DNA from: Dehalococcoidales bacterium
GTDB lineage: Bacteria > Chloroflexota > Dehalococcoidia > Dehalococcoidales > RBG-16-60-22
Assembly: GCA_028712355.1 (NCBI GenBank)
Contig: JAQTQH010000001.1
Location: forward strand, 9,864 to 73,863
Length of the DNA: 64,000 nt
Direction of reading: 5' to 3'
In this document: piece by piece, positions 3,073 through 52,511 of the stretch
Layout: the number at the start of each line of letters is the position of its first letter
How positions within the stretch are numbered: position 1 is the first letter of the stretch
The notes under the pieces: generated by a model
The model's database searches: none
The model's input: only the letters and a program-made list of their open reading frames with translations
What the model was told of the DNA's origin: nothing
Made by a program: the position numbers and the translations under genes

Positions 3073-3606
3073 GTGCAAGATGAGGAGAGCCTCGTCAGGC
3101 GTGCTAAAGAGCATGACCCGGAGGCGTTAACTCAAATATATGAAGAGAACTTCGATAAGGTTTACCGATACGTGGTTCTCAAGATTGGAGAAAGGACCGA
3201 GGCGGAGGATATTACCCAGCAGGTATTCCTCAGCGCCATCAAGTCCATTTCTTCCTTTAAATGGCAGGGGGCACCGGTATCTGCCTGGTTGTATCGTATT
3301 GCGCACAACCAGATTGTGGACTACCTGAGGAGGAAGACCAAGGTGCCGACGGTGCAGCTGGATGAATCACTGGCGAGTGAAAGTGATGACCCGGAGTCTC
3401 TGGCGGAGCAAAAGGTAGAGATTGAGCATCTCAGTATGATAATGAAAAGATTGACCAGGGCGCAGCAGCAGGTGATTTCACTCCGCTTTACCGCGGAGAT
3501 GTCTATCGCGGAATGCGCCAGGGCAATGGGTAAAAGCGAGGGGGCAATTAAGGCATTGCAGCACAGCGCCATCGCGGCGCTGCGGCGGGAGTTAGCGGCG
3601 GGGTAG
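3073..3606 (+). CDS. ECF-type sigma-70 family RNA polymerase sigma factor
   Basis: 177 aa. Region 2 (DITQQVFLSA, WLYRIAHNQIVDYLRR) and region 4 HTH (MSIAECARAMGKSEGAIKALQHSA). GTG start. Confidence 0.88.
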   Translation: MQDEESLVRRAKEHDPEALTQIYEENFDKVYRYVVLKIGERTEAEDITQQVFLSAIKSISSFKWQGAPVSAWLYRIAHNQIVDYLRRKTKVPTVQLDESLASESDDPESLAEQKVEIEHLSMIMKRLTRAQQQVISLRFTAEMSIAECARAMGKSEGAIKALQHSAIAALRRELAAG

Positions 3607-3610
3607 AGAG

Positions 3611-4573
3611 ATGAACAGTACAAGGGAATTTGACAATATTCTGAATGAGTGCCTGGAAAGGATTCTGCTCAAGGGCGAATCCATCGAGCAGTGCCTGGCG
3701 GGGCACCCCGGGATTGCCGGCGAGCTAAAACCCCTGCTGGAGACCGCCATCGCCGCCAAGCAGGCGACGGCAGTCAAGCCGCGGGCCGAGTTCCGTGAGA
3801 AGACACGCCGCCAGTTCCAGAACGCGGTCTATGAAACCGTAGAAAAACGGGCGCACCGCTCATTATTCAGCTGGCACCCCCAGTGGGCGACCACCGTGGC
3901 GGCAGTGCTCATTGTAGTCCTGCTGGGAGGCGGAGGGACGGTCGCCGCCGCCAGCAACAGTCTGCCGGATGAGACGCTGTATCCGGTGAAAATCGCCACG
4001 GAACAGGTTCGCCTGGTCCTGACCCCCACAGCAATGGGCAAAGCCGACCTGTACGTCAAGCTGACGGATAAGAGGGTTAGCGAAATCGAGGCTATGGCAG
4101 CGCGTGGTAACCCCCATCATATTGAGGTAGCCTCCGAGCGTATGAATGAACATCTGGCAGCGATAGCGATGCTGAGGGGAACGAGGGTTGCCATGCCGAT
4201 GGGGATGATGGCACCGGCACCGCAAATGCTAACATCCTCGAATGAGTCGGCGGATACCGCTGCCCCGGCGCGTACGGCTCCTAACTTCGCGCCGGCACCC
4301 GCACCGGTCACAGGAATAGCACCGCCGGTGGCGGTAGCACCTCGTGTGAAAGTACCTGCCGATAATGAAACCCTCAACAAGGAACTTGATAAATTGGACC
4401 GGGAAACCCGGCTGAAGGTTATCATCGCCCGGCGGGCAATCGAAAACCGGGAGGCGCTGCTTGCCATGCTGGAACGCGCTCCGGAACACGTCAAGCCGGC
4501 GCTCCAGCGCGCTCTCGCTCAATCCGAAGAAGGCTACCAGAATGCCCTGAAAGCGCTGGACAAAGAAGAATAG
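3611..4573 (+). CDS. Putative anti-sigma factor, single-pass membrane protein (DUF5667-like)
   Basis: Starts 5 nt after the sigma gene. N-terminal cytoplasmic helix bundle, one TM segment (WATTVAAVLIVVLLGGGG), extracytoplasmic helical domain plus an Ala/Pro-rich segment. Assignment rests on position and architecture. Confidence 0.55.
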   Translation: MNSTREFDNILNECLERILLKGESIEQCLAGHPGIAGELKPLLETAIAAKQATAVKPRAEFREKTRRQFQNAVYETVEKRAHRSLFSWHPQWATTVAAVLIVVLLGGGGTVAAASNSLPDETLYPVKIATEQVRLVLTPTAMGKADLYVKLTDKRVSEIEAMAARGNPHHIEVASERMNEHLAAIAMLRGTRVAMPMGMMAPAPQMLTSSNESADTAAPARTAPNFAPAPAPVTGIAPPVAVAPRVKVPADNETLNKELDKLDRETRLKVIIARRAIENREALLAMLERAPEHVKPALQRALAQSEEGYQNALKALDKEE

Positions 4574-4668: not shown

Positions 4669-5433
4669 ATGAAAAGAACGTGGTTGGCGGTGGTCGGTAT
4701 TTTGCTGGTAGTAGTGGTGGCAGCTCTAACAGCCTGCAGTGGTGAGACCAGCATTGCCGGCCCCGCTAATTTAAAGGTAGACCTGGGCAGCCAGCAGGAA
4801 GGCATCTTTGTTAATGGTACCGGCAAGGTAGCCGCTGCGCCGGATATCGCCACGCTGAGCCTGGGCATCGAAGCCCAGGAAACAAGCGTCGCGGATGCCC
4901 AGACCAAAGCCGCTGCCGCGATGGAAAAGGTAATTGCCGCGCTCAAAAACGGCGGCATCGCCACCAAGGATATTCAGACCCAGTATTTCAATATTCAGAA
5001 AGTGACCCGCTGGGATGATAAACAGCAGCTAGAGGTCGTGCTGGGCTACAAAGTTACCAACATCGTGACCGCCAGGATAAGAACCATGGACAAAGTGGGT
5101 ACGATTATCGATGCGGTAGCGGCGGCGGGGGGTGATCTGACCCGGATCAACAGCGTGTCCTTCTCCATCGAAGACCCGACCGACTATCAGAAAGATGCCC
5201 GTGCCAGGGCGATGGCAGACGCACAGGCAAAGGCGAAGCAGCTTGCCGACCTGAGCGGCATCAAGCTGGGTAAACCTTCCTATATCTCGGAGAGCACTTA
5301 TACCCCGGCACCGATTTACCGTGATACCAAGATGGCGGTCCCGGCAGCGTCTCAGGGAGTGGAGACATCTATCAATGCCGGCGAGCTGGACGTGGTAGTT
5401 AACGTGCAGGTTACCTACGCCATCGCCGAATAA
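4669..5433 (+). CDS. SIMPL/DUF541-family lipoprotein
   Basis: 254 aa. Signal peptide plus lipobox (VVAALTAC). Strong AAGGAGG RBS. Overall pattern of the 26-kDa periplasmic immunogenic protein family (GYKVTN.V.V.......G.IID, INAGELDV). Confidence 0.7.
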   Translation: MKRTWLAVVGILLVVVVAALTACSGETSIAGPANLKVDLGSQQEGIFVNGTGKVAAAPDIATLSLGIEAQETSVADAQTKAAAAMEKVIAALKNGGIATKDIQTQYFNIQKVTRWDDKQQLEVVLGYKVTNIVTARIRTMDKVGTIIDAVAAAGGDLTRINSVSFSIEDPTDYQKDARARAMADAQAKAKQLADLSGIKLGKPSYISESTYTPAPIYRDTKMAVPAASQGVETSINAGELDVVVNVQVTYAIAE

Positions 5434-5495: not shown

Positions 5496-6086
5496 ATGTC
5501 GCGAAAAGTAAAGGTTCTGATAGGGGTTCTTCTGGGAGTGATGATGCTGACGCTGGGCGGTACCGCCATCGCGTTTGCCGATGACACGGCGGCTGCCCCG
5601 GTGGACAACGCCACCAGTCCATCGATACTCGACCGGATAGCGGAAATCTTGAAAATCGATAAGCAGACCCTGACCGATGCCTTCAACCAGGCGCGCCAGG
5701 AGATGCAGGCGGACAACCAGACCCGGTTCCGCGAGCGGAGAGAGTTGACCGAGGAAGAGAAAGCACAACTGCAGGAGAGGCGGCAGGAGCAGATTGAGAA
5801 GATGAAGGAGCGGATGCTGCAGATGAGGGAGAGAGCCGCCGAAGCCCGCCAGCAGATGCTGGATAGAGCCGTTGAGAAGGGCACTATCACCGGGGATGAA
5901 AAACAGGGGATCATCGACTGGTGGAATGCCCGACCGGAGGCACTGGACAAGCTGGGACCGCAGGGTGGAATCGGCAACAGTTTCTGCCCGCCCGGACAGT
6001 TTAAAAAGGCGCCCAATGCAACGCAGAACCAGAGAGCTAACAGGGTTATGCCTGGAGCCGGCATGATGGGTGGAGTGGTGAGGTAG
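5496..6086 (+). CDS. Secreted coiled-coil protein of unknown function (DUF2680-like)
   Basis: ORF track starts at GTG 5487. ATG 5496 lies 8 nt after GGAGGAGG. Signal peptide (VLIGVLLGVMMLTLGGTAIAFA) followed by a highly charged helical repeat region. Confidence 0.5.
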   Translation: MSRKVKVLIGVLLGVMMLTLGGTAIAFADDTAAAPVDNATSPSILDRIAEILKIDKQTLTDAFNQARQEMQADNQTRFRERRELTEEEKAQLQERRQEQIEKMKERMLQMRERAAEARQQMLDRAVEKGTITGDEKQGIIDWWNARPEALDKLGPQGGIGNSFCPPGQFKKAPNATQNQRANRVMPGAGMMGGVVR

Positions 6087-6143
6087 AAAGAGCATGCGGC
6101 TGACGCCGTGCTAGCCCGCCCGGTGCAAACCGGATTTCACATT

Positions 6144-6170
6144 GAGGGAGCTTCGCATAGAGGCTCCCTC
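6144..6170. terminator. Hairpin between convergent genes (possible bidirectional terminator)
   Basis: GAGGGAGC-11 nt-GCTCCCTC followed by TCCTATTTATT. Sits between the stops at 6086 (+) and 6173 (-). Confidence 0.4.
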
Positions 6171-6172
6171 TC

Positions 6173-6721
6173 CTATTTATTCCCCGATTCAGTGTAGCGT
6201 TCCCATTCGCTGTATAGGCAGCCGCAGTACTGCTGGCGGTAGAGTTCCATCGGTTTTGTGATGTGGCGGCTGTCCGAGTAGCGCTTGCGCAGGTCGGCGT
6301 AGAGGAAGGCAATACCCTTCTCCTTAGCAATTTTCTCGCCGATTTCCTTAATCAGTTCGTGTTTCTGATGGGGGCTGATGAGCAGGGTGGTGGTGAAGGA
6401 CCCGATTCCCATCTGGCAGGCTACCTCAGCCGCCCTGGTGAGTCTCAGCTCGAAGCAGCAGCGGCAGCGGTCGGCTTCATGCCCCGCTACCCGCCGGAAG
6501 TACTCCGGCATGTCATAGCTTTCGGCAACGGTGAGCGGCAGACTGATTTCCTGCGCCAGCTTTTGCATGGCTTCCAAGCGGCTCTGGTGTTCCATGAAGG
6601 GATGGATGTTGGGGTTGTACCAGAAGCCGCTTGCCTGATAGCCCTGCTCCCGCCAGTATTGGGCGGTATACGCGGCGCAGTGGGCGCAGCAGGTGTGAAT
6701 TAAGACGGAGGTCATGGGCAT
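6173..6721 (-). CDS. queH: Epoxyqueuosine reductase QueH (DUF208)
   Basis: 182 aa. N-terminal HTCCAHC, central CRCC, C-terminal YCGC cysteine pattern and the length typical of QueH. Confidence 0.85.
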   Translation of the reverse strand: MPMTSVLIHTCCAHCAAYTAQYWREQGYQASGFWYNPNIHPFMEHQSRLEAMQKLAQEISLPLTVAESYDMPEYFRRVAGHEADRCRCCFELRLTRAAEVACQMGIGSFTTTLLISPHQKHELIKEIGEKIAKEKGIAFLYADLRKRYSDSRHITKPMELYRQQYCGCLYSEWERYTESGNK

Positions 6722-6817
6722 ATTTTAGACTGACGGAGAAGGATTTGGCAATGTTTTATGGTAAAATGAGAATGATCAATGACTAAATGAATAATAAAAA
6801 ATAGGAAGGAGTGCCAA

Positions 6818-7051
6818 ATGAATATGGATGGAAGGGCTGCTAGTCTTAAAGCGAGGGAATATCTGGTCGAATTGAATGGTTCCTATAATATCTGGAATTT
6901 TCAAGTAGAAAACGTTGAGTATAATGAGCAAAACAAAACATGGGCTGTACAATGTTCTTTTACACCAAACATGTTCGTTACTGAAAGATTGAAATATGAA
7001 ATTATAGTATCTGATACTGGGAGTATCAAATCGGCAAAGAAAGTCAAGTAG
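6818..7051 (+). CDS. Hypothetical 77-aa protein in AT-rich islet (candidate partner of the PIN-like protein)
   Basis: AGGAAGGAG RBS 6 nt upstream. AT-rich codon usage matches the downstream ORF. No recognisable family motif. Confidence 0.5.
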   Translation: MNMDGRAASLKAREYLVELNGSYNIWNFQVENVEYNEQNKTWAVQCSFTPNMFVTERLKYEIIVSDTGSIKSAKKVK

Positions 7052-7055
7052 TTTT

Positions 7056-7574
7056 ATGAATTATTTATCAATATTATCAAATGGCTTGATAATTGATACT
7101 GGCCCCCTATTGTTACTTACGTTTTGTCGTTATAACGAAGGGCGATACCTTGAAAAAGTACGGTCTTACATTCCCAAGCCAGATATTAAGGCAGTGTCGG
7201 TGACAATCCAACAAATACTCTCCGCCGTGCCCAAAGCTGCTGTGACATCTTATGTATTAGGTGAATTTCACGCACTCGCAGGTAGGGAATTAGATTCAGA
7301 GGGAGTAATTGGTTTGATGTCCAGCAATTATGAGATGCTTAATAAAATTGAAGAAATCACTATCAGCAAGGGTGATATTTTACGTGCAAAACAGGAAAGA
7401 ACATTCCACTTTTGCTTTGCTGACACATCGCTAATGCTCGCTGCAATGCGGACTAACATGCCAGTATTGACTATAGACCGTGAATTGGGAAGATATTGTA
7501 AGGCTAATAATATCCCATCACTTGATCTGTATTATGAGTGCTTTGTTAACGACAGTTGGCTTACTTTCTCGTGA
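7056..7574 (+). CDS. PIN-domain-like (VapC-like) protein
   Basis: 172 aa, 4 nt after the previous ORF. Acidic residues in PIN order and context: LIIDTGPLL, SYVLGEFHAL, CFADTSLMLAAM, PVLTIDRELGRY. Motif-level call only. Confidence 0.55.
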   Translation: MNYLSILSNGLIIDTGPLLLLTFCRYNEGRYLEKVRSYIPKPDIKAVSVTIQQILSAVPKAAVTSYVLGEFHALAGRELDSEGVIGLMSSNYEMLNKIEEITISKGDILRAKQERTFHFCFADTSLMLAAMRTNMPVLTIDRELGRYCKANNIPSLDLYYECFVNDSWLTFS

Positions 7575-7592
7575 GCAGCATTTTCCAAATAT

Positions 7593-8618
7593 TTACAGCA
7601 GACTCGGCTGGTTGTTGTTCTTCTCTTTGTGATAGGGGATGCCGAGGTGCTGGTAGGCGAGGGGAGTGGCGAGTCTGCCGCGGGGGGTGCGCTCCAGGAA
7701 GCCCAGCTGCAACAGGTAAGGTTCGTAGACATCCATGATAGTGTCCGATTCCTCGCTGATGGAGGCGGCAATGGTCTCCAGCCCCACCGGTCCCCCGCCG
7801 AACTTATCGATTATCGTGTGCAGCAGCTTGTGGTCGACATCATCCAGCCCGATGGCATCGACCTGTAGTTTCGCCAGCGCTTCAAGGGCGGCTTTCTTCG
7901 TGATGATGCCGTCCGCCATCACCTGGGCGTAGTCCCGCACCCGGCGCAGGAGGCGGTTGGCGACGCGGGGTGTGCCGCGGGCGCGGCAGGCGATTTCTTT
8001 TAAACCTTCGGCTTCCGCTTCGACCTGTAAAATCTGGGCGGAGCGTTTTATAATTTTTTCAATCGACTGCGGGTCATAAAAATCGAGGCGGTACACCGAG
8101 CCAAAGCGGTCGCGCAGGGGCGGACTGAGCAGGGCGTAGCGGGTGGTGGCGCCGATGAGGGTAAATTTGGGCAGGTTGAGACGCAGGCTGCGGGCGCCCG
8201 GCCCCTTGCCGATGATGATATCCAGCGCATAGTCTTCCATCGCCGGATAAAGGATTTCCTCGACGACGCGGCTGAGGCGGTGGATTTCATCGATAAAGAG
8301 GATGTCCCCGGCTTTCAGATTGGTCAGGATAGCCGCTAAATCTCCGGTGCGCTCGATGGCAGGCCCCGAGGTCATGCGGATGTTTACGCCCACCTCGGCG
8401 GCGATGATATAAGCGAGGGTGGTTTTGCCGAGTCCCGGCGGACCGTAGAGCAGGACGTGGTCGAGGCTTTCGCCGCGGGCGCGCGCCGCCGCAATGGCGA
8501 TGCCAAGGTTTTCTTTAATCTGTTCCTGCCCGGTAAAATCCGCCAGGGTATGCGGCCGCAGGCTGGTATCCAGCGGGGCATCTTCCACGGCGGGCTTACC
8601 GGAAACAACGCGTGCCAT
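7593..8618 (-). CDS. ruvB: Holliday junction branch migration helicase RuvB
   Basis: 341 aa. Walker [10 protein letters not shown], Walker [10 protein letters not shown], sensor and winged-helix C-terminus. Confidence 0.96.
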
Positions 8619-16544: not shown

Positions 16545-16688
16545 CTCAACTCCTTAAAAGGCAAACGCTTATTCTAAAACTGCCGCGTATCTTCTGAACT
16601 TAGTTTATTGATTGCAAACGCATACTTCAGCGCATTTTTTCAGTGGGTCTTACAGAGGTTAAAATATGAGGCATTATTGCAAATTTAA

Positions 16689-16717
16689 ATCTTATCATTT
16701 TTTTTTACGGTTGTCAA
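16689..16717 (-). promoter_or_regulatory. Candidate sigma-70 promoter for rpoBC
   Basis: Minus strand reads TTGACA-17 nt-TAAGAT in the AT-rich spacer, about 140 nt upstream of the rpoB start. Confidence 0.4.
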
Positions 16718-16867
16718 ATTCATTCTCAAATTACGTATAAACAATTTCCGCCGCCCTGTTCTTGACTCCCCAGTAAAAGCGATGTTGAAAGAAAAGAGGT
16801 GTGGTTGTAGTATATGTATATATGTATATTAGAGTGAAATAGTGCCGGGTGATAAGGAGTCCGTATC

Positions 16868-17062
16868 ATGCTGTTTAAAATAAATTGTCCGAGCTGTGGC
16901 ACTGAAACCAGTTTCTCTTTCCGGGAGCTCGATTATAAAGGACCGTTCCGCTGCTGGAAGTGCCGGGCTACGTTTACCATTAGAATCGAAAATAAAAAGC
17001 TGACTTCCTGTGAGCCTCTTAGCGCCGAAGATTTTGCCAAGGTGAATAAGCTGAACTACTAG
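16868..17062 (+). CDS. Small zinc-ribbon protein
   Basis: 64 aa. CPSC ... CWKC pair of CxxC knuckles. AAGGAG RBS 9 nt upstream. Confidence 0.5.
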   Translation: MLFKINCPSCGTETSFSFRELDYKGPFRCWKCRATFTIRIENKKLTSCEPLSAEDFAKVNKLNY

Positions 17063-17068
17063 GCAGAC

Positions 17069-17692
17069 TCACCGCGGGTGCTGCAAAACGACATTGCGAA
17101 AGACACCCCAGAGTGAATTATACTTTTCCCGCAGATCGAAGCCGTACTGACTTAAAGTCCAGGTGTTGACCAGTCCCTGGGTCAAACAGAAAAATAGCCC
17201 CGCGGCAGCATCAAGGTCAACATCGGCGCGGACGGTTCCGGAATCAACCCCACGGCGCAGCATTTCCGCAATCATGGTGGTATATCCATCAATTACCTCA
17301 TAAGCCTTTTTGTTCAGTTTGCTGTCACCGAAGCTGACGATTTCCGCGATGACCTGGAAGGAAATACCACGCCTTTCTATGATGTGTGACATGTGATTGA
17401 TGAAAGCATTTTCGAGTGCTTCCTGAGTACGGCAGTCTTCCGTAAGAACAAATCCCTCTTCAGAAAGGAGGGCTTTTTCGACATCGTCAATCAGGAGGGA
17501 AAGCACGTCACGCTTGCTTTTAAAGTGTTTATAGATGGCGCCCTCGGAAATGCCAGTTTCCTTGGCGATTCTCCGTACGGTAACATGCTCGCTGCCGTAC
17601 CGGGTGATGAGCTTGCGGGCGGCATCGATTATCTGTTTCTTTCGTACCGTCGTACTGGAGCGCTTTTGAACCACGCAAATTCCCTCACGCAC
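17069..17692 (-). CDS. TetR/AcrR family transcriptional regulator
   Basis: N-terminal TetR HTH (VTVRRIAKETGISEGAIYKHFKSKRDVL). The GTG at 17674, preceded by GAGGGA, is a likelier start than the ORF-track 17692. Confidence 0.87.
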   Translation of the reverse strand: MREGICVVQKRSSTTVRKKQIIDAARKLITRYGSEHVTVRRIAKETGISEGAIYKHFKSKRDVLSLLIDDVEKALLSEEGFVLTEDCRTQEALENAFINHMSHIIERRGISFQVIAEIVSFGDSKLNKKAYEVIDGYTTMIAEMLRRGVDSGTVRADVDLDAAAGLFFCLTQGLVNTWTLSQYGFDLREKYNSLWGVFRNVVLQHPR

Positions 17693-17872
17693 TTGAAGCT
17701 ACCATAATCTTACCACAAAGCAACCTGCCACAAAAGAGCGCAGCACGCTTCCCCATGCATATCACAAAACGGCCGTAATGTTACAAGAGCAGAGCCCGCA
17801 ATATTATCGACGCGCCCATTACCTTACAGATCCCAACACCGCCGGAATCCTTAAGGCGTTTCTTGATTTGGA

Positions 17873-18043
17873 CTAGCCGCCGGTAGCCGCGGAGACGGCG
17901 ATGATGATGCCCATCACGACAATAAGGATGAGTATCCAGCCGCCCATCATTAAGAACGTGGCGAACTTGCCCCAGAAACCCTTCTTCTTCTTGACTTCTT
18001 TGGTTTCCTTCACTTCATTCTGCTGAACCATTGTTTCCTCCAT
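17873..18043 (-). CDS. Small membrane protein (56 aa), absent from the ORF track
   Basis: Own translation: MEETMVQQNEVKETKEVKKKKGFWGKFATFLMMGGWILILIVVMGIIIAVSAATGG. AGGAGA RBS 7 nt upstream, charged N-terminus plus one TM helix, TAG stop. Lies upstream of the TetR gene on the same strand. Confidence 0.5.
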   Translation of the reverse strand: MEETMVQQNEVKETKEVKKKKGFWGKFATFLMMGGWILILIVVMGIIIAVSAATGG

Positions 18044-18128
18044 TGCCCTCTCCTTTCAGAAAAATGCAGCGTTATTGCTAATTACGGCAGACGAATTCTG
18101 CTTTATAAACGAGGCGTAAGTAAGCAAG

Positions 18129-18175
18129 CGTTTACTTTGTTAGTAAACGATAACATACCTTTTTTCTTTTGTCAA
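18129..18175 (-). promoter_or_regulatory. Candidate promoter with perfect palindromic operator (CGTTTACT-N5-AGTAAACG)
   Basis: Minus strand reads TTGACA (18170-18175)-17 nt-TATCGT (18147-18152). The 8+8 bp inverted repeat at 18129-18149 overlaps the -10 and the predicted start site, about 90 nt upstream of the small membrane ORF. Confidence 0.45.
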
Positions 18176-18223
18176 GACCTTTTGTAAGTCGGTTTTGCTC
18201 AATTGTGTTTGCAATACCGTGTT

Positions 18224-18290
18224 TACCTCACCCTGTCCTCTCCCGTAAGAGTCAACTATTATACCGAGATACATTTAGCTGGAGAGGGAG
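18224..18290 (+). repeat. Family C repeat variant (CCTCACCCTGTCCTCTCCC ... GGAGAGGGA)
   Basis: Shares the TCACCCT..CCTCTCCC / GGGAGAGG motif with copies at 41128, 41188, 47235 and 47297. This copy has an enlarged loop. Confidence 0.45.
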
Positions 18291-18360
18291 TGTACAAAAA
18301 GAGGGGTGGTTCTTCCAAAATTAAGCCGTGTTATAATAAATTACGGAGGATTCAAGCTGA

Positions 18361-27327: not shown

Positions 27328-27400
27328 GCCCGAGTAGCGCAATGGCAGCGCAACCGACTTGTAATCGGTAGGTTGACGGGTTCGACTCCCTCCTCGGGCT
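27328..27400 (+). tRNA. tRNA-Thr (anticodon TGT)
   Basis: Hand fold: acceptor GCCCGAG/CTCGGGC, D stem GCGC/GCGC, anticodon stem ACCGA/TCGGT with loop CTTGTAA, T loop TTCGACT. The T stem needs one bulged C or two mismatches. Confidence 0.85.
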
Positions 27401-27415
27401 GGGGATAGGTACTGG

Positions 27416-27502
27416 GGAGGGATGCCGGAGCGGCCAATCGGAGCAGACTGTAAATCTGCCGCCCTAAGGGCTACGCAGGTTCGAATCCTGCTCCCTCCAC
27501 CA
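27416..27502 (+). tRNA. tRNA-Tyr (anticodon GTA), class II with long variable arm, CCA encoded
   Basis: Acceptor GGAGGGA/TCCCTCC, anticodon stem GCAGA/TCTGC with loop CTGTAAA, variable arm GCCC-TAA-GGGC, T arm GCAGG-TTCGAAT-CCTGC, 3' ACCA. Confidence 0.93.
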
Positions 27503-27567
27503 TATGAATGTGGGAGCAAGCTCCTCTAGACAACAAATAATAAATATCTGTATAATAGAAACAATGT

Positions 27568-27640
27568 GCCCACATAGCTCAGTAGGTAGAGCACGCCCTT
27601 GGTAAGGGCGGGGTCATCAGTTCGAATCTGATTGTGGGCT
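27568..27640 (+). tRNA. tRNA-Thr (anticodon GGT)
   Basis: Canonical cloverleaf: GCCCACA/TGTGGGC, GCTC/GAGC, CGCCC-TTGGTAA-GGGCG, ATCAG-TTCGAAT-CTGAT. Confidence 0.95.
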
Positions 27641-31065: not shown

Positions 31066-31256
31066 TACTGATTGCGTTTTACTGATATATTGTGCTAAGA
31101 TAAATTTAAATTGAATATAGTATCCTAAGACAGCGGGTGCCGCTCGCGGCTTAATGAGTCTGCCTGCCGAGGAATCAAGAAATCGATAGATTTGAGAGTC
31201 CTTGTGCATGGCGCAGGGACTTTCTTTTTTGAGCGTCACTTCAGGAGGATGAAAAA
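31066..31256 (+). promoter_or_regulatory. rplJ leader: promoter-like site plus terminator-like attenuator hairpin (candidate L10 leader)
   Basis: TTGCGT-18-TAAGAT at 31072-31101. An 11-bp stem AGTCCTTGTGC/GCGCAGGGACT at 31197-31221 is followed by TTTCTTTTTT and ends 27 nt before the rplJ ATG. Confidence 0.5.
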
Positions 31257-50378: not shown

Positions 50379-50945
50379 CTATTTCTTGCCGGTGACGCGC
50401 TCGACGTAGGTGCCGGTACGGGTGTCTATTTTAATGACGTCACCCTCTTTAATGAAGGCCGGCACGCCGATAGCGGTGCCGGTTTCCAGGGTTACCGGTT
50501 TATTTTGCGATACCAGGCTATCCGTTTTGGTGGACGCCGAAGTTTCCACAACCTTGAGCTCGACAAAATTGGCAATGTTTACCGCAATCGGCGCCTCGCC
50601 CATCATCTGCACCACGGCGGTCGTACCTTCCTTAAGAAACTTCTCCCGGCCGCCCAGCCTCTCTTCAGGAATGTGGTACTGCTCGAAGGTTTCCGTATTC
50701 ATGAAGACGTAGCTCTTGCCGTCCTGGTAAAGATACTGCATCTCATAACTGCTGACTTCGACCTCTTCCACGTCATCACCGGAATGGTAAGTCTGCTCCA
50801 TCACGGTGTTTTCTTTCAGATTGCGCAACCTTAAACGGTAAACGGCGCGCCCCTTGCCCGGCTTCATGAAGTCCACATCGTCAACATTGAAGGGGATGCC
50901 GTTCAGCAGCATCTTGGTATTCCGGCCTACGTCTTCTATTTTCAT
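50379..50945 (-). CDS. efp: Elongation factor P
   Basis: 188 aa. Modified-loop KPGKGRA (Lys31) and three OB/KOW-like domains. Confidence 0.95.
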   Translation of the reverse strand: MKIEDVGRNTKMLLNGIPFNVDDVDFMKPGKGRAVYRLRLRNLKENTVMEQTYHSGDDVEEVEVSSYEMQYLYQDGKSYVFMNTETFEQYHIPEERLGGREKFLKEGTTAVVQMMGEAPIAVNIANFVELKVVETSASTKTDSLVSQNKPVTLETGTAIGVPAFIKEGDVIKIDTRTGTYVERVTGKK

Positions 50946-51102
50946 CTAAAGTATGCTCCTCAATAACTCCATCTGACTTGATTTGATTGATACTACACGA
51001 TATTATAAGATTTCTGGAGTTTATTGTACATAGCGGTACAGGCGGGACTTTATCAGCTATTGGGAGAAAATCGGTCTCCGCAGCGTATAGATTGGCAGGC
51101 AA

Positions 51103-51131
51103 TTGACAAGGGTGACCTAACAGAGTAAAAT
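51103..51131 (+). promoter_or_regulatory. Candidate promoter of the TRAP operon
   Basis: TTGACA-17 nt-TAAAAT. Implies a ~185-nt leader before the TTG start at 51324. Confidence 0.45.
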
Positions 51132-51323
51132 ATCCGAAATAGTTAAAAATAGACGGCGGAAAAACAAGAGATACCGCTTCGGAGATTCAAATCACACGGC
51201 ACGTCAGTGAAGTGGCAGTGCCTGTCTTTTAGTCCTTTAGTCATATTGAGAAGGGAGGTGAGAGGGCAGAGAGATAACAAATATTATTGCAAAACGTTCA
51301 CAAAATCTCTTGAGGAGGAAAAG

Positions 51324-52511
51324 TTGAAAGGAAAACTGATTAAATCTATTGGTATTATTATTGCCTTAGTACTGGTCGCATCGCTTTCATTGATTGCCTG
51401 CCAGCCGGCGGCGCCCGCCACCACCACCGCCCCGGCCGCAACCACTCCGGCGGCGACTACTCCGGGCGCGGTAACCGCTACAGCGACCACCCCGGCCGCC
51501 ACGAAGCCTGCCACTACCACCCCCGCCCCGAAGCCGGCGGCCACGGTAATCAAGTGGAAATTCCAGACCCATGAGGGCCCAGATCTGGTTAACTCCACCA
51601 AGCTCCAGAAGTGGCTTGTCCCCACCCTCGAGGCCATGACCGATGGCCGCTTCACGATGGATATCTTCTATACCGGCGCAATCCTGCCCAACGAAGAACT
51701 GGTTGACGGCGCCAACAAGGGCGTTATTGACGGCTTCGATATCAGCCAGGGTTATTTCTCCGGCGCTAAGAACATGGGCTGGACGATTGCCGCCGGCATT
51801 GAGCCTTTCATCGAGAAGACCGGCATCGAAATCTTCGAGTTCCTCTGGGACTGGGAAGGCGGCAAGATGGAGAAGTGGCATCAGAAGCAGTGGGACCCGT
51901 TCGGCATTCACTTCTTCACTTCCGTACCGGCTAACGGTGTTGGCCTTATCTGCTCCAAAGATATCACCAACCTGGCGGATGTCTCCAAGATTATCGTCCG
52001 CACGCACAGCGGCGCGGCAGTCTTCTGGGAGCAGCTTGGCGCCCGTACCACTTACATCCCCGGACCGGAAATCTACACCGGCCTCCAGCTCGGCACCGCT
52101 AATGCCGCCACCTGGAAATCGGCTCAATCCTTCAAGGACTGGCACTGGGAAGAGGTCGCCAAGTACCTCGTTATGCCGGCCCCGCTACCGTGGGCGGCCC
52201 ACCAGTCTTATAGCAGCATTAATGCCTGGAACAAGCTGCCCAAGGACATCCAGAATTGCATGACCATCGCTTTCCGCGAGTTCGCCCAGCAGCACCACCG
52301 CAACTACGTGGACCTCGACGAGAAAGCCGCCCAGGAAATGGCTGCCAAGTCCGGCGTTAAAGTAATCCGATGGACCAGCGCGGCGGACATGGCCAAGCTG
52401 GAGGCAGCTAAAATGTACGTCATGGACTGGATTTCCAAGAAGGATGCCAGCGGCGCGGAATACATCAACCTGTGCAAGGACTATCTCAGATACAAGGGTT
52501 ACATACAGTAA
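51324..52511 (+). CDS. dctP: TRAP transporter substrate-binding lipoprotein (DctP-type) with Pro/Thr/Ala linker
   Basis: TTG start 5 nt after GAGGAGG; the ORF track gives 51207. Lipobox LSLIAC and a ~50-aa PAT-rich tether, followed by a solute-receptor domain, then dctQ and dctM. Confidence 0.8.
   Translation: MKGKLIKSIGIIIALVLVASLSLIACQPAAPATTTAPAATTPAATTPGAVTATATTPAATKPATTTPAPKPAATVIKWKFQTHEGPDLVNSTKLQKWLVPTLEAMTDGRFTMDIFYTGAILPNEELVDGANKGVIDGFDISQGYFSGAKNMGWTIAAGIEPFIEKTGIEIFEFLWDWEGGKMEKWHQKQWDPFGIHFFTSVPANGVGLICSKDITNLADVSKIIVRTHSGAAVFWEQLGARTTYIPGPEIYTGLQLGTANAATWKSAQSFKDWHWEEVAKYLVMPAPLPWAAHQSYSSINAWNKLPKDIQNCMTIAFREFAQQHHRNYVDLDEKAAQEMAAKSGVKVIRWTSAADMAKLEAAKMYVMDWISKKDASGAEYINLCKDYLRYKGYIQ

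Follow-up and report, generated by a model that had tools for sequence, protein, structure and literature searches.

What are the two small genes that interrupt the ruvB-queH junction in a Dehalococcoidales metagenome-assembled genome (MAG), and how did they come to lie there? The stretch of DNA considered here, called the window, comprises 64,000 nt of this MAG; all positions are window coordinates unless a locus is named, and L-numbers are the labels of homologous loci recovered in the analysis. Between queH and ruvB, both on the minus strand, the window holds an AT-rich islet with two tandem genes on the plus strand. The islet is an insertion, located at the 4-nt overlap of ruvB and queH. 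Its downstream gene encodes a 172-aa protein that is predicted to be a PIN-fold (VapC-like) nuclease, while its upstream gene encodes a 77-aa partner that accompanies the nuclease gene in every homologous locus. With a confidence slightly better than even, the pair is read here as a mobile type II toxin-antitoxin (TA)-like nuclease/inhibitor cassette, the partner of which would be a globular, non-DNA-binding, PepSY-like protein. The features concerned are the following:

6715..7591, no strand: inserted AT-rich cassette of ~880 bp, delimited by blastn against the sister MAG locus L026 and by GC content.
6818..7051, plus strand: partner gene, 77 aa, encoding a PepSY-like putative inhibitor/antitoxin (open reading frame, linkage and the Pfam match of a homologue).
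7056..7574, plus strand: predicted PIN-domain (VapC-like) nuclease gene, 172 aa (family, profile and predicted fold).
6173..6721, minus strand: queH, the native left flank (Pfam QueH, 2.8e-55; MDD5126494 by exact look-up).
7593..8618, minus strand: ruvB, the native right flank (Pfam RuvB_N, 5e-80, with AAA_lid_4 and RuvB_C).

The layout is the one described in the original prediction, which was made from the sequence alone: two tandem plus-strand open reading frames, separated by a 4-nt gap, are enclosed by queH and ruvB on the minus strand. The queH start as annotated by NCBI is an ATG at 6715, and ruvB is convergent with the PIN gene, the two stop codons being 18 nt apart. The GC contents that had been counted by hand for the sequence lines starting at 6901, 7081, 7321, 6421 and 7681 could be reproduced (33.3, 38.3, 31.7, 65.0 and 58.3%, respectively). 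For the interval 6722-7592 the GC content is 0.371. The segment 6715-7591 (877 bp) has a GC content of 0.373, compared to 0.564±0.030 for non-overlapping 877-bp windows over the whole window (z = -6.4). It is the lowest-GC stretch of the window, with a runner-up of 0.439 at 16551-17427. The same is observed at third codon positions, where the GC content (GC3) is 0.34 in the 77-aa gene and 0.37 in the 172-aa gene, compared to 0.67-0.77 in queH, ruvB, rpoB, rpoC, SIMPL and ychF.

The origin of the islet is revealed by a second Dehalococcoidales MAG, GCA_028706655.1 (locus L026), the one relative in which the junction was compared, by blastn and manual reading. Its QueH belongs to the same 90%-identity cluster as the window QueH, and the gene order matches (rpoB, rpoC, ruvB, queH, DUF2680, SIMPL, DUF5667, sigma-70). 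In L026, ruvB (6979-8004) and queH (8001-8543) overlap by 4 nt (GTGA) without any cassette, and queH starts at a GTG that overlaps the TGA stop of ruvB. According to blastn, L026 6966-8005 corresponds to window 8631-7592 at 85.5% identity, and L026 8002-8544 to window 6714-6172 at 86.7% identity. The flanks are collinear with L026 and 84-87% identical, while 6715-7591 has no counterpart there. Both RuvB proteins end in the same C-terminus (...NQPSLL*), and the window queH begins at an ATG supplied by the edge of the inserted DNA. Since the sister MAG displays an empty GTGA-overlap site within collinear flanks, the islet is an insertion at the 4-nt ruvB/queH overlap, and it split a translationally coupled gene pair, as seen at window 6711-6751 (minus strand) and L026 7990-8010. 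Each junction displays a T(G/A)A triplet (minus-strand reading, 7593-7595 and 6712-6714), leaving the boundaries ambiguous by at most 4 nt; this triplet could be a 3-bp target duplication or a microhomology. The original prediction had proposed horizontal acquisition and had named conservation of the pair at this junction among relatives as evidence to the contrary. In the relative the junction is empty, and the empty site together with the strongly deviant composition bears the acquisition out.

What does the inserted DNA encode? The 172-aa protein gave no significant match in Pfam (E <= 1), NCBIfam, PADLOC or PHROGs, and a word-indexed search of 5.8 billion proteins yielded no more than three PIN clusters and two relatives. 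The family becomes visible only by exhaustive profile search: among 1.84 billion cluster representatives, 59 proteins were found at E <= 1e-3, nearly all of 150-185 aa. Of 48 family members, 21 match Pfam PIN (PF01850) at E <= 0.1, the best of them at 7.7e-7; PIN_5, PIN_9 or PIN_4 is matched by a few. The family profile matches PIN chains in the PDB, namely AF0591 (1o4w, 3.9e-5), the PIN domain of MJ1533 (3i8o, 7.5e-5) and VapC26 (2e-3). When the 172-aa protein itself was compared to the PDB with phmmer, the only match was a nanobody, which was taken as chance.

The predicted structure leads to the same assignment. An AlphaFold2 model from a 3-sequence alignment was unusable (predicted local distance difference test score, pLDDT, of 40), and the model from a 48-sequence alignment was used instead (pLDDT 94.6, predicted template modeling score 0.90). 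Foldseek against the PDB ranks PAE0151, AF0591, VapC20, VapC26 and FitB at the top, followed by dozens of VapC/PIN chains (template modeling (TM) score, normalized to the target, of 0.6-0.73). All six matches at E <= 1e-3 are PIN/VapC chains (2fe1, 1o4w, 5wzf, 5wz4, 5x3t), with target TM scores of 0.64-0.73. The model, taken with these matches, shows the three-layer alpha/beta/alpha arrangement with a central parallel beta-sheet that defines the PIN fold. A search of the viral fold collection BFVD with the PIN model gave no match at E <= 1e-3.

The catalytic residues expected of a PIN nuclease are conserved. In the 48-member alignment D14 and D141 are invariant, and T64, E70, E100 and D123 nearly so. 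With hmmalign on 28 members from all loci, D14, T64, E70, D123 and D141 are invariant, while E100 is replaced only in L018 (Gln) and L019 (Tyr). The canonical acidic positions of PIN domains (end of beta1, in the helix after beta2, at the start of the helix after beta3, and after beta4) agree with the secondary structure of the model. The four acidic PIN/VapC motifs that had been picked out by eye coincide with the invariant columns D14, E70, D123 and D141 of the 28 sequences; as these residues are invariant in the family, the motifs can be equated with the catalytic columns. The VapC-like identity proposed earlier thus holds at the levels of family matches, PDB profile matches and fold, the model returning almost exclusively PIN/VapC structures. 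Family and model together indicate a PIN-fold (VapC-like) nuclease in which the predicted catalytic residues D14, E70, (E100), D123 and D141 are intact.

The second line of evidence is the strict linkage of the two genes. Homologous loci were obtained from exact-protein look-ups, one metagenome scan and a scan of GTDB genomes; the metagenome scan gave only a duplicate of L001, and profile scans of genome contigs and viral contigs, started from the first small alignment, gave no match. In 31 of 31 loci, as in the window, a homologue of the partner lies directly upstream of the PIN gene on the same strand, with a length of 77-101 aa. An hmmsearch with the partner profile found the partner in 26 of 26 sources and, at E 1.9e-9 and 3.6e-13, also in the two PIN lineages that are most remote among those sampled. 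The spacing of the genes ranges from -17 to +42 nt (median ~3.5 over 14 loci; 4 nt in the window). Hosts include Dehalococcoidia, other Chloroflexi, Archaeoglobaceae, Bathyarchaeia, Methanothrix/Methanotrichaceae, Methanosarcinales and Thermoplasmata. Because the lineages share no other conserved neighbor, the module comprises these two genes alone.

The two genes have also diverged together. Pairwise distances of PIN and partner proteins are correlated (Pearson r = 0.86), and their neighbor-joining trees, built without bootstrap, are broadly congruent. In these trees the window copy groups with its closest relatives, L001 and L004 among them, near archaeal copies and apart from the other Chloroflexi clade. 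The pairs closest to that of the window (57-61% identity) occur in unrelated contexts, L001 in a contig of 44% GC and L002 next to a flank of 65% GC. Among Methanotrichaceae orthologues the ratio of nonsynonymous to synonymous divergence (dN/dS) is 0.03-0.13 for both genes, with dS up to ~2.9; both genes are under purifying selection. In L018 (5655-5958) a frameshift within an A8 stretch (~5822-5829) splits the partner, while the PIN protein is intact except for E100Q. The frameshift could be an assembly error, decay or slippage. It was considered as a sign of a non-essential antitoxin and rejected, since a frameshift in an A8 homopolymer of a MAG may be an assembly error.

The partner itself is less easily placed. 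For the 77-aa protein no significant match was found in Pfam, NCBIfam, PADLOC or PHROGs, and a word-indexed homology search gave only three clusters of partners. Searches of Pfam, NCBIfam and PDB sequences revealed no antitoxin DNA-binding domain in the window protein, in 19 homologues or in the profile. The original prediction had recognized no ribbon-helix-helix (RHH), AbrB, helix-turn-helix (HTH) or Phd signature, and this is confirmed at the family level (0 of 19 homologues); the partner is non-canonical. The sole family detected among the homologues is PepSY (PF03413). The homologue at L005:1019-1321, which shares 32% identity with the window protein and is matched by the partner hidden Markov model at 1.3e-33, reaches 27.6 bits against a Pfam gathering cut-off of 24 (E 3.8e-6), spanning model positions 7-59 of 60. 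When partner profiles were compared to PDB sequences, the best match was the MS2 coat protein (E 0.09), taken as chance, and neither PepSY nor an antitoxin was matched.

Alignments of the partner family display invariant Y15, F28 and W42. The overall pattern is an N-terminal amphipathic helix followed by four segments of alternating hydrophobicity and a C-terminal 'YEV.V..dG.IL.V' motif, which resembles the consensus of the PepSY family. Conservation and hydrophobicity are consistent with a PepSY-like topology, in which a helix packs on a four-stranded antiparallel sheet. Inspection by eye revealed no evident signal-peptide-like N-terminus or transmembrane segment, and the partner is apparently a compact globular, cytoplasmic, stand-alone protein. 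A PepSY fold is probable for the 77-aa partner, yet the assignment is tentative, because neither the window protein nor any of the family profiles matches PepSY significantly.

How would such a pair work? In the reading that we favor, a two-gene cassette of ~880 bp was acquired horizontally by this Dehalococcoidales lineage and inserted at the ruvB/queH overlap. The 77-aa protein is encoded directly upstream of the PIN gene, probably in translational coupling with it. The PIN protein would be a toxic RNase held inactive through stoichiometric binding of the co-translated PepSY-like protein. The small protein would block the acidic active-site pocket, in the way in which a PepSY propeptide acts on its peptidase or barstar on barnase. 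Autoregulation of the operon by the antitoxin would not be expected, because the partner has no recognizable DNA-binding domain. Several signs are TA-like or typical of accessory genes: the small upstream partner with a larger nuclease, the AT-richness, the patchy distribution across domains and, at some loci, defense or mobile neighbors (SIR2-STAND, SIR2, IS21, restriction-modification). With its empty sister site, deviant composition and cross-domain patchiness, the distribution is accessory and laterally mobile, while some lineages are vertically stable.

The genomic contexts are informative in this respect. In 24 of 26 sources the GC content of the pair lies below that of the flanking DNA; the difference amounts to as much as 19 GC points and is largest in the window. 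Low GC alone is no proof of recent arrival, because the pair is AT-richer in nearly all hosts, apparently vertical lineages included. Copies in purine operons are found in four diverged Chloroflexi/Dehalococcoidia lineages, represented by L006 (5752-6516), L010 (71-858), L018 (5655-6477) and L019 (2174-2971). Here the setting is purB (with or without an FAA hydrolase gene), the module and purC-DUF3105-purS, with 0-nt or overlapping junctions and a GC content below that of the flanks; it points to a domestication of long standing or to a hotspot of insertion that has been conserved. In L020-L024 (e.g., L021 5763-6483), from Methanotrichaceae and Methanosarcinales, the module is convergent with leuS at a conserved site and the opposite flank is variable, carrying a SIR2+nSTAND3 protein in L021 (1123 aa), a SIR2 protein in L024 (508 aa) and IS21 in L020. 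This pattern fits a defense or variable hotspot.

Other copies keep more unusual company. In L017 copies of a ~100-nt repeat (3349-3622, 5132-5375 and 6535-6758) bracket the module (5661-6498) as well as a canonical VapBC-like pair (3605-4302); the copies occur in tandem pairs, and a 26-nt inverted repeat bounds one. This looks like a cassette array or an organization like that of miniature inverted-repeat transposable elements (MITEs). The most distant module sampled, in L027 (3855-7201), has on one side a DUF2726 gene with an upstream unannotated 87-aa gene, and on the other side an N6_N4 methyltransferase and an EcoO109I-type restriction enzyme, together a defense-island-like cluster. In both L027 and L028 the pair directly adjoins these methyltransferase, restriction enzyme and DUF2726 genes.

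A number of observations weigh against a mobile TA-like cassette. First, in four diverged Chloroflexi lineages the pair lies between purB and purC with 0-nt junctions; Methanotrichaceae and Methanosarcinales retain it at a conserved place next to leuS, under strong purifying selection in the Methanotrichaceae. Stable inheritance of this kind, integrated into operons, characterizes housekeeping genes more than it does selfish TA cassettes. Second, no mobility gene or terminal repeats account for the insertion: a search of the islet ends gave neither a tRNA nor an integrase and, apart from the 3-nt T(G/A)A, no inverted or direct terminal repeats. Plasmid and phage collections held no match to the PIN protein (tblastn), and neither window protein matches PADLOC-DB 2.0 at E <= 1; for 48 PIN family members PADLOC gave only scattered matches at E >= 0.0037. 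Third, the window pair lacks the complementarity of an acidic antitoxin and a basic toxin (isoelectric points 7.8 and 5.7). Finally, only 2 of 17 partner homologues match the Pfam PepSY model at E <= 1, the second more weakly, while the window protein and the family profiles remain below significance against PepSY and against PepSY sequences of the PDB.

The resident copies favor a different function, which is unlikely overall and still the most serious of the alternatives: a non-toxic two-subunit nuclease for RNA processing or regulation, with the small protein as specificity or regulatory subunit and the window copy acquired laterally. The embedding between purB and purC, the conserved position on the leuS side and the low dN/dS maintained over so large a dS speak for this function, as do other neighbors (genes for aminoacyl-tRNA synthetases, TtuA and the Lhr helicase). 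The compact globular partner differs from the typical labile, partly disordered antitoxin, and weak NCBIfam similarities link the PIN protein to archaeal PINc families of housekeeping type (RNA ligase partner, PRK13764). Presence/absence polymorphism between sister genomes speaks against this function, as does the great rarity of the family (59 clusters among 1.84 billion representatives) with its patchy occurrence in different domains. The consistent AT-richness of the pair relative to its hosts and the defense or mobile genes adjoining some copies argue in the same direction. Nor do the lineages share a third conserved gene or a constant pathway context.

The defense neighbors raise the question of whether the TA-like cassette serves in anti-phage abortive infection, the PepSY-like protein releasing the PIN nuclease upon a phage cue. 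This would be a sub-case of the TA-like model, and we consider it rather improbable. It could explain the SIR2+nSTAND3, SIR2 and IS21 genes in the variable flank of Methanotrichaceae, the L027/L028 pairs beside a methyltransferase, an EcoO109I-type enzyme and DUF2726, and the L017 pair near a canonical VapBC-like pair and bracketed by repeats. The absence of PADLOC matches for the query and 48 family members does not agree with it; nor do the housekeeping contexts at most loci, and the window cassette lies outside any defense island, flanked by rpoBC-ruvB and queH.

Could the cassette be ancestral at the junction and precisely deleted in the sister MAG, its AT-richness being a property of the genes? 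It is true that the flanks are richer in GC than the pair in nearly all hosts, apparently vertical lineages among them, and that the junction was compared in one relative only. An insertion is nevertheless much likelier, because a precise deletion must regenerate the GTGA overlap, and must do so perfectly while leaving the RuvB C-terminus intact. Moreover, the 19-point GC gap, with GC3 values of 0.34-0.37 against ~0.7, is the extreme of the range seen, and the closest homologues sit in unrelated genomic contexts. Ancestral presence followed by loss is consequently very unlikely.

Hardly credible, finally, is a PIN-fold small-molecule enzyme like RohQ (a PIN-fold cyclodehydratase making 2-aminoimidazole), perhaps acting on an imidazole or purine-pathway intermediate with the small protein as accessory subunit: the PIN model (m08e20b736cc7) does match RohQ (PDB 9c5w/9oq8, E ~5e-3, TM 0.55-0.59, similar length) and several Chloroflexi copies lie within the purine biosynthesis operon, but more than 20 chains of VapC/PIN nucleases rank above RohQ, which shares only 10-11% identity, the four canonical metal-binding acidic residues are invariant, most loci, including that of the window, have no purine context, and a literature search for this possibility found nothing.

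Returning to the mobile TA-like cassette, its expression signals and its effect on queH remain to be described:

6803..6811, plus strand: Shine-Dalgarno sequence AGGAAGGAG, 6 nt before the partner ATG (read from the sequence).
6745..6773, plus strand: promoter-like region of the cassette, TTGGCA-17-GAGAAT, plus TGGTAAAAT at 6759-6767.
6722..6751, minus strand: promoter-like TTGCCA-18-TAAAAT (10/12, consensus scan) within the insert, facing queH.

The strong ribosome-binding site that had been noted upstream of the 77-aa gene is present as AGGAAGGAG, and a Shine-Dalgarno sequence of AGGAGG type occurs at the equivalent position in L001, L002 and L004. The promoter fared less well: the site TTGGCA-17-GAGAAT exists at 6745-6773, but it is weak, with a consensus score of only 9/12. 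A consensus scan gave 9 promoter-like sites in the islet region compared to 2.8±1.8 in shuffles; the AT-rich DNA here holds many such sites. A better -10 candidate than GAGAAT is the TAAAAT at 6762-6767 which, preceded by TGG, forms the extended -10-like box TGGTAAAAT (6759-6767). Among the four closest homologous cassettes compared, it aligns with upstream TA[A/C]AAT boxes, which suggests a promoter function.

The minus-strand site TTGCCA-18-TAAAAT abuts the queH start codons (6721 and 6715). Because this 10/12 site lies in the insert and ends at the queH starts, cassette DNA may have taken over the transcription of queH, and the mRNA, beginning near 6715, could be leaderless. The insert thus appears to supply queH with both a new start codon and a promoter. 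No terminator-like hairpin was found in the islet region, and read-through from ruvB would run antisense to the cassette.

The islet had also been called the only clearly accessory-looking DNA in the window. It is by far the most extreme, but milder dips in GC content exist at 16.5-17.4 kb and 50.5-51.4 kb. The first belongs to the second-lowest GC patch (16551-18360, GC 0.44-0.50), which comprises the intergenic region upstream of rpoB, an open reading frame for a TetR-like regulator (17069-17692, minus strand, GC3 0.575) and the ORF-poor stretch 17700-18360, that is, one poor in open reading frames. The sister contig ends within rpoB, short of this patch. A third mild low-GC patch (GC 0.455) lies at 50501-51377. 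Elsewhere in the window, 27328-27640 and 31106-31235 hold three tRNA genes and a ribosomal protein L10 leader (Rfam matches at gathering level), which are ordinary housekeeping features.

Why would such a cassette matter? The PIN/VapC toxins constitute the largest toxin-antitoxin superfamily. The antitoxins known for them are without exception proteins that bind DNA and bear a tail for toxin binding. Constant pairing of a PIN protein with a compact PepSY-like one would control the nuclease in another way. If true, it would extend the inhibitory PepSY fold from the control of extracellular peptidases to that of intracellular RNases, and would add a non-autoregulating architecture of barnase/barstar style to the VapC world. 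It is possible, if somewhat short of an even chance, that the window pair is the founding example of an undescribed Chloroflexi-archaea family of PIN modules, with the cytoplasmic PepSY-like partner as a new class of antitoxin or inhibitor without DNA-binding domain.

In the full-text literature no paper was found that ties PepSY to PIN domains, antitoxins, immunity proteins or nuclease inhibitors. Two 'dark matter' papers of Makarova/Koonin (one being PMC6393860) treat PepSY only as a presumed protease inhibitor or a propeptide of secreted proteases, and the main text of the PIN classification by Matelska et al. (PMC5499597) leaves PepSY unmentioned. As there is no Pfam, NCBIfam or PADLOC model and the proteins are annotated as 'hypothetical protein', the family is invisible to current TA and defense finders. 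TA-like PIN cassettes are commonplace; what distinguishes this one is the strictly conserved, unannotated, probably PepSY-like partner, together with the pair of filled and empty sites. Filled and empty sites in sister Dehalococcoidales genomes offer an unusually clean natural experiment, and the existence of both mobile and pur-operon-fixed copies bears on the domestication of selfish nuclease cassettes.

Among known proteins, the archaeal PINc-type AF0591 (1o4w) and MJ1533 (3i8o) are the best PDB profile matches, over the C-terminal half with the pattern 'tD.Sli.aA...-LT.D..L'. 1o4w is also the second-best fold match of the PIN model, and the module family likewise has an archaeal component. 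AF0591 has been placed in the PIN_9/COG1412 group (Matelska et al. 2017, PMC5499597). The similarity is remote, however (12-18% identity), and AF0591 and MJ1533 are stand-alone proteins or ATPase/KH fusions, Fcf1-like or of no assigned function, without a PepSY-like partner.

With barnase-barstar and other nuclease/immunity pairs, the module shares a working analogy, in that a globular, non-DNA-binding inhibitor would block the active site of a dangerous intracellular nuclease. There is no kinship of sequence or fold; in contrast to these pairs, the module nuclease lacks both a signal for secretion and a domain for delivery, and the gene of the putative inhibitor precedes that of the nuclease instead of following it.

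Known PepSY domains (PF03413; the propeptide of M4 peptidases, YpeB, YpmB) are extracytoplasmic, occurring as propeptides, membrane-anchored proteins and spore-cortex regulators, and their partners are peptidases or lytic enzymes. The module's partner, in contrast, is a stand-alone and apparently cytoplasmic protein, as judged by eye, and is invariably found beside a PIN nuclease gene instead of a peptidase. One of its homologues passes the Pfam threshold over nearly the full PepSY model. The stoichiometric inhibition of a cognate enzyme proposed here would parallel the inhibitory role proposed for PepSY by Yeats et al. 2004 (as cited in PMC6393860).

The closest parallel is VapBC, as represented by M. 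tuberculosis VapBC20 and VapBC26, FitAB and Pyrobaculum PAE0151. Both display the small gene upstream and the PIN gene downstream in a tight or overlapping operon, the same PIN fold with four canonical acidic residues, VapC proteins being the best structural matches, and the same patchy, laterally transferred distribution in AT-rich DNA. The module's PIN protein is, however, longer (160-180 aa) than VapC (~130), possesses the extra near-invariant E100 and, in the window copy, fails PF01850. While VapBC antitoxins carry an AbrB, RHH, Phd-YefM or HTH domain, the module's partner carries none and is seemingly a compact PepSY-like alpha+beta protein. Unlike VapBC, the module is held stably in housekeeping operons by some lineages. 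Because a DNA-binding antitoxin, a defining feature of VapBC, is absent, the module is best filed as VapBC-like in its working and kept apart from VapBC proper, as a worthwhile candidate for a new class of antitoxin or nuclease inhibitor.

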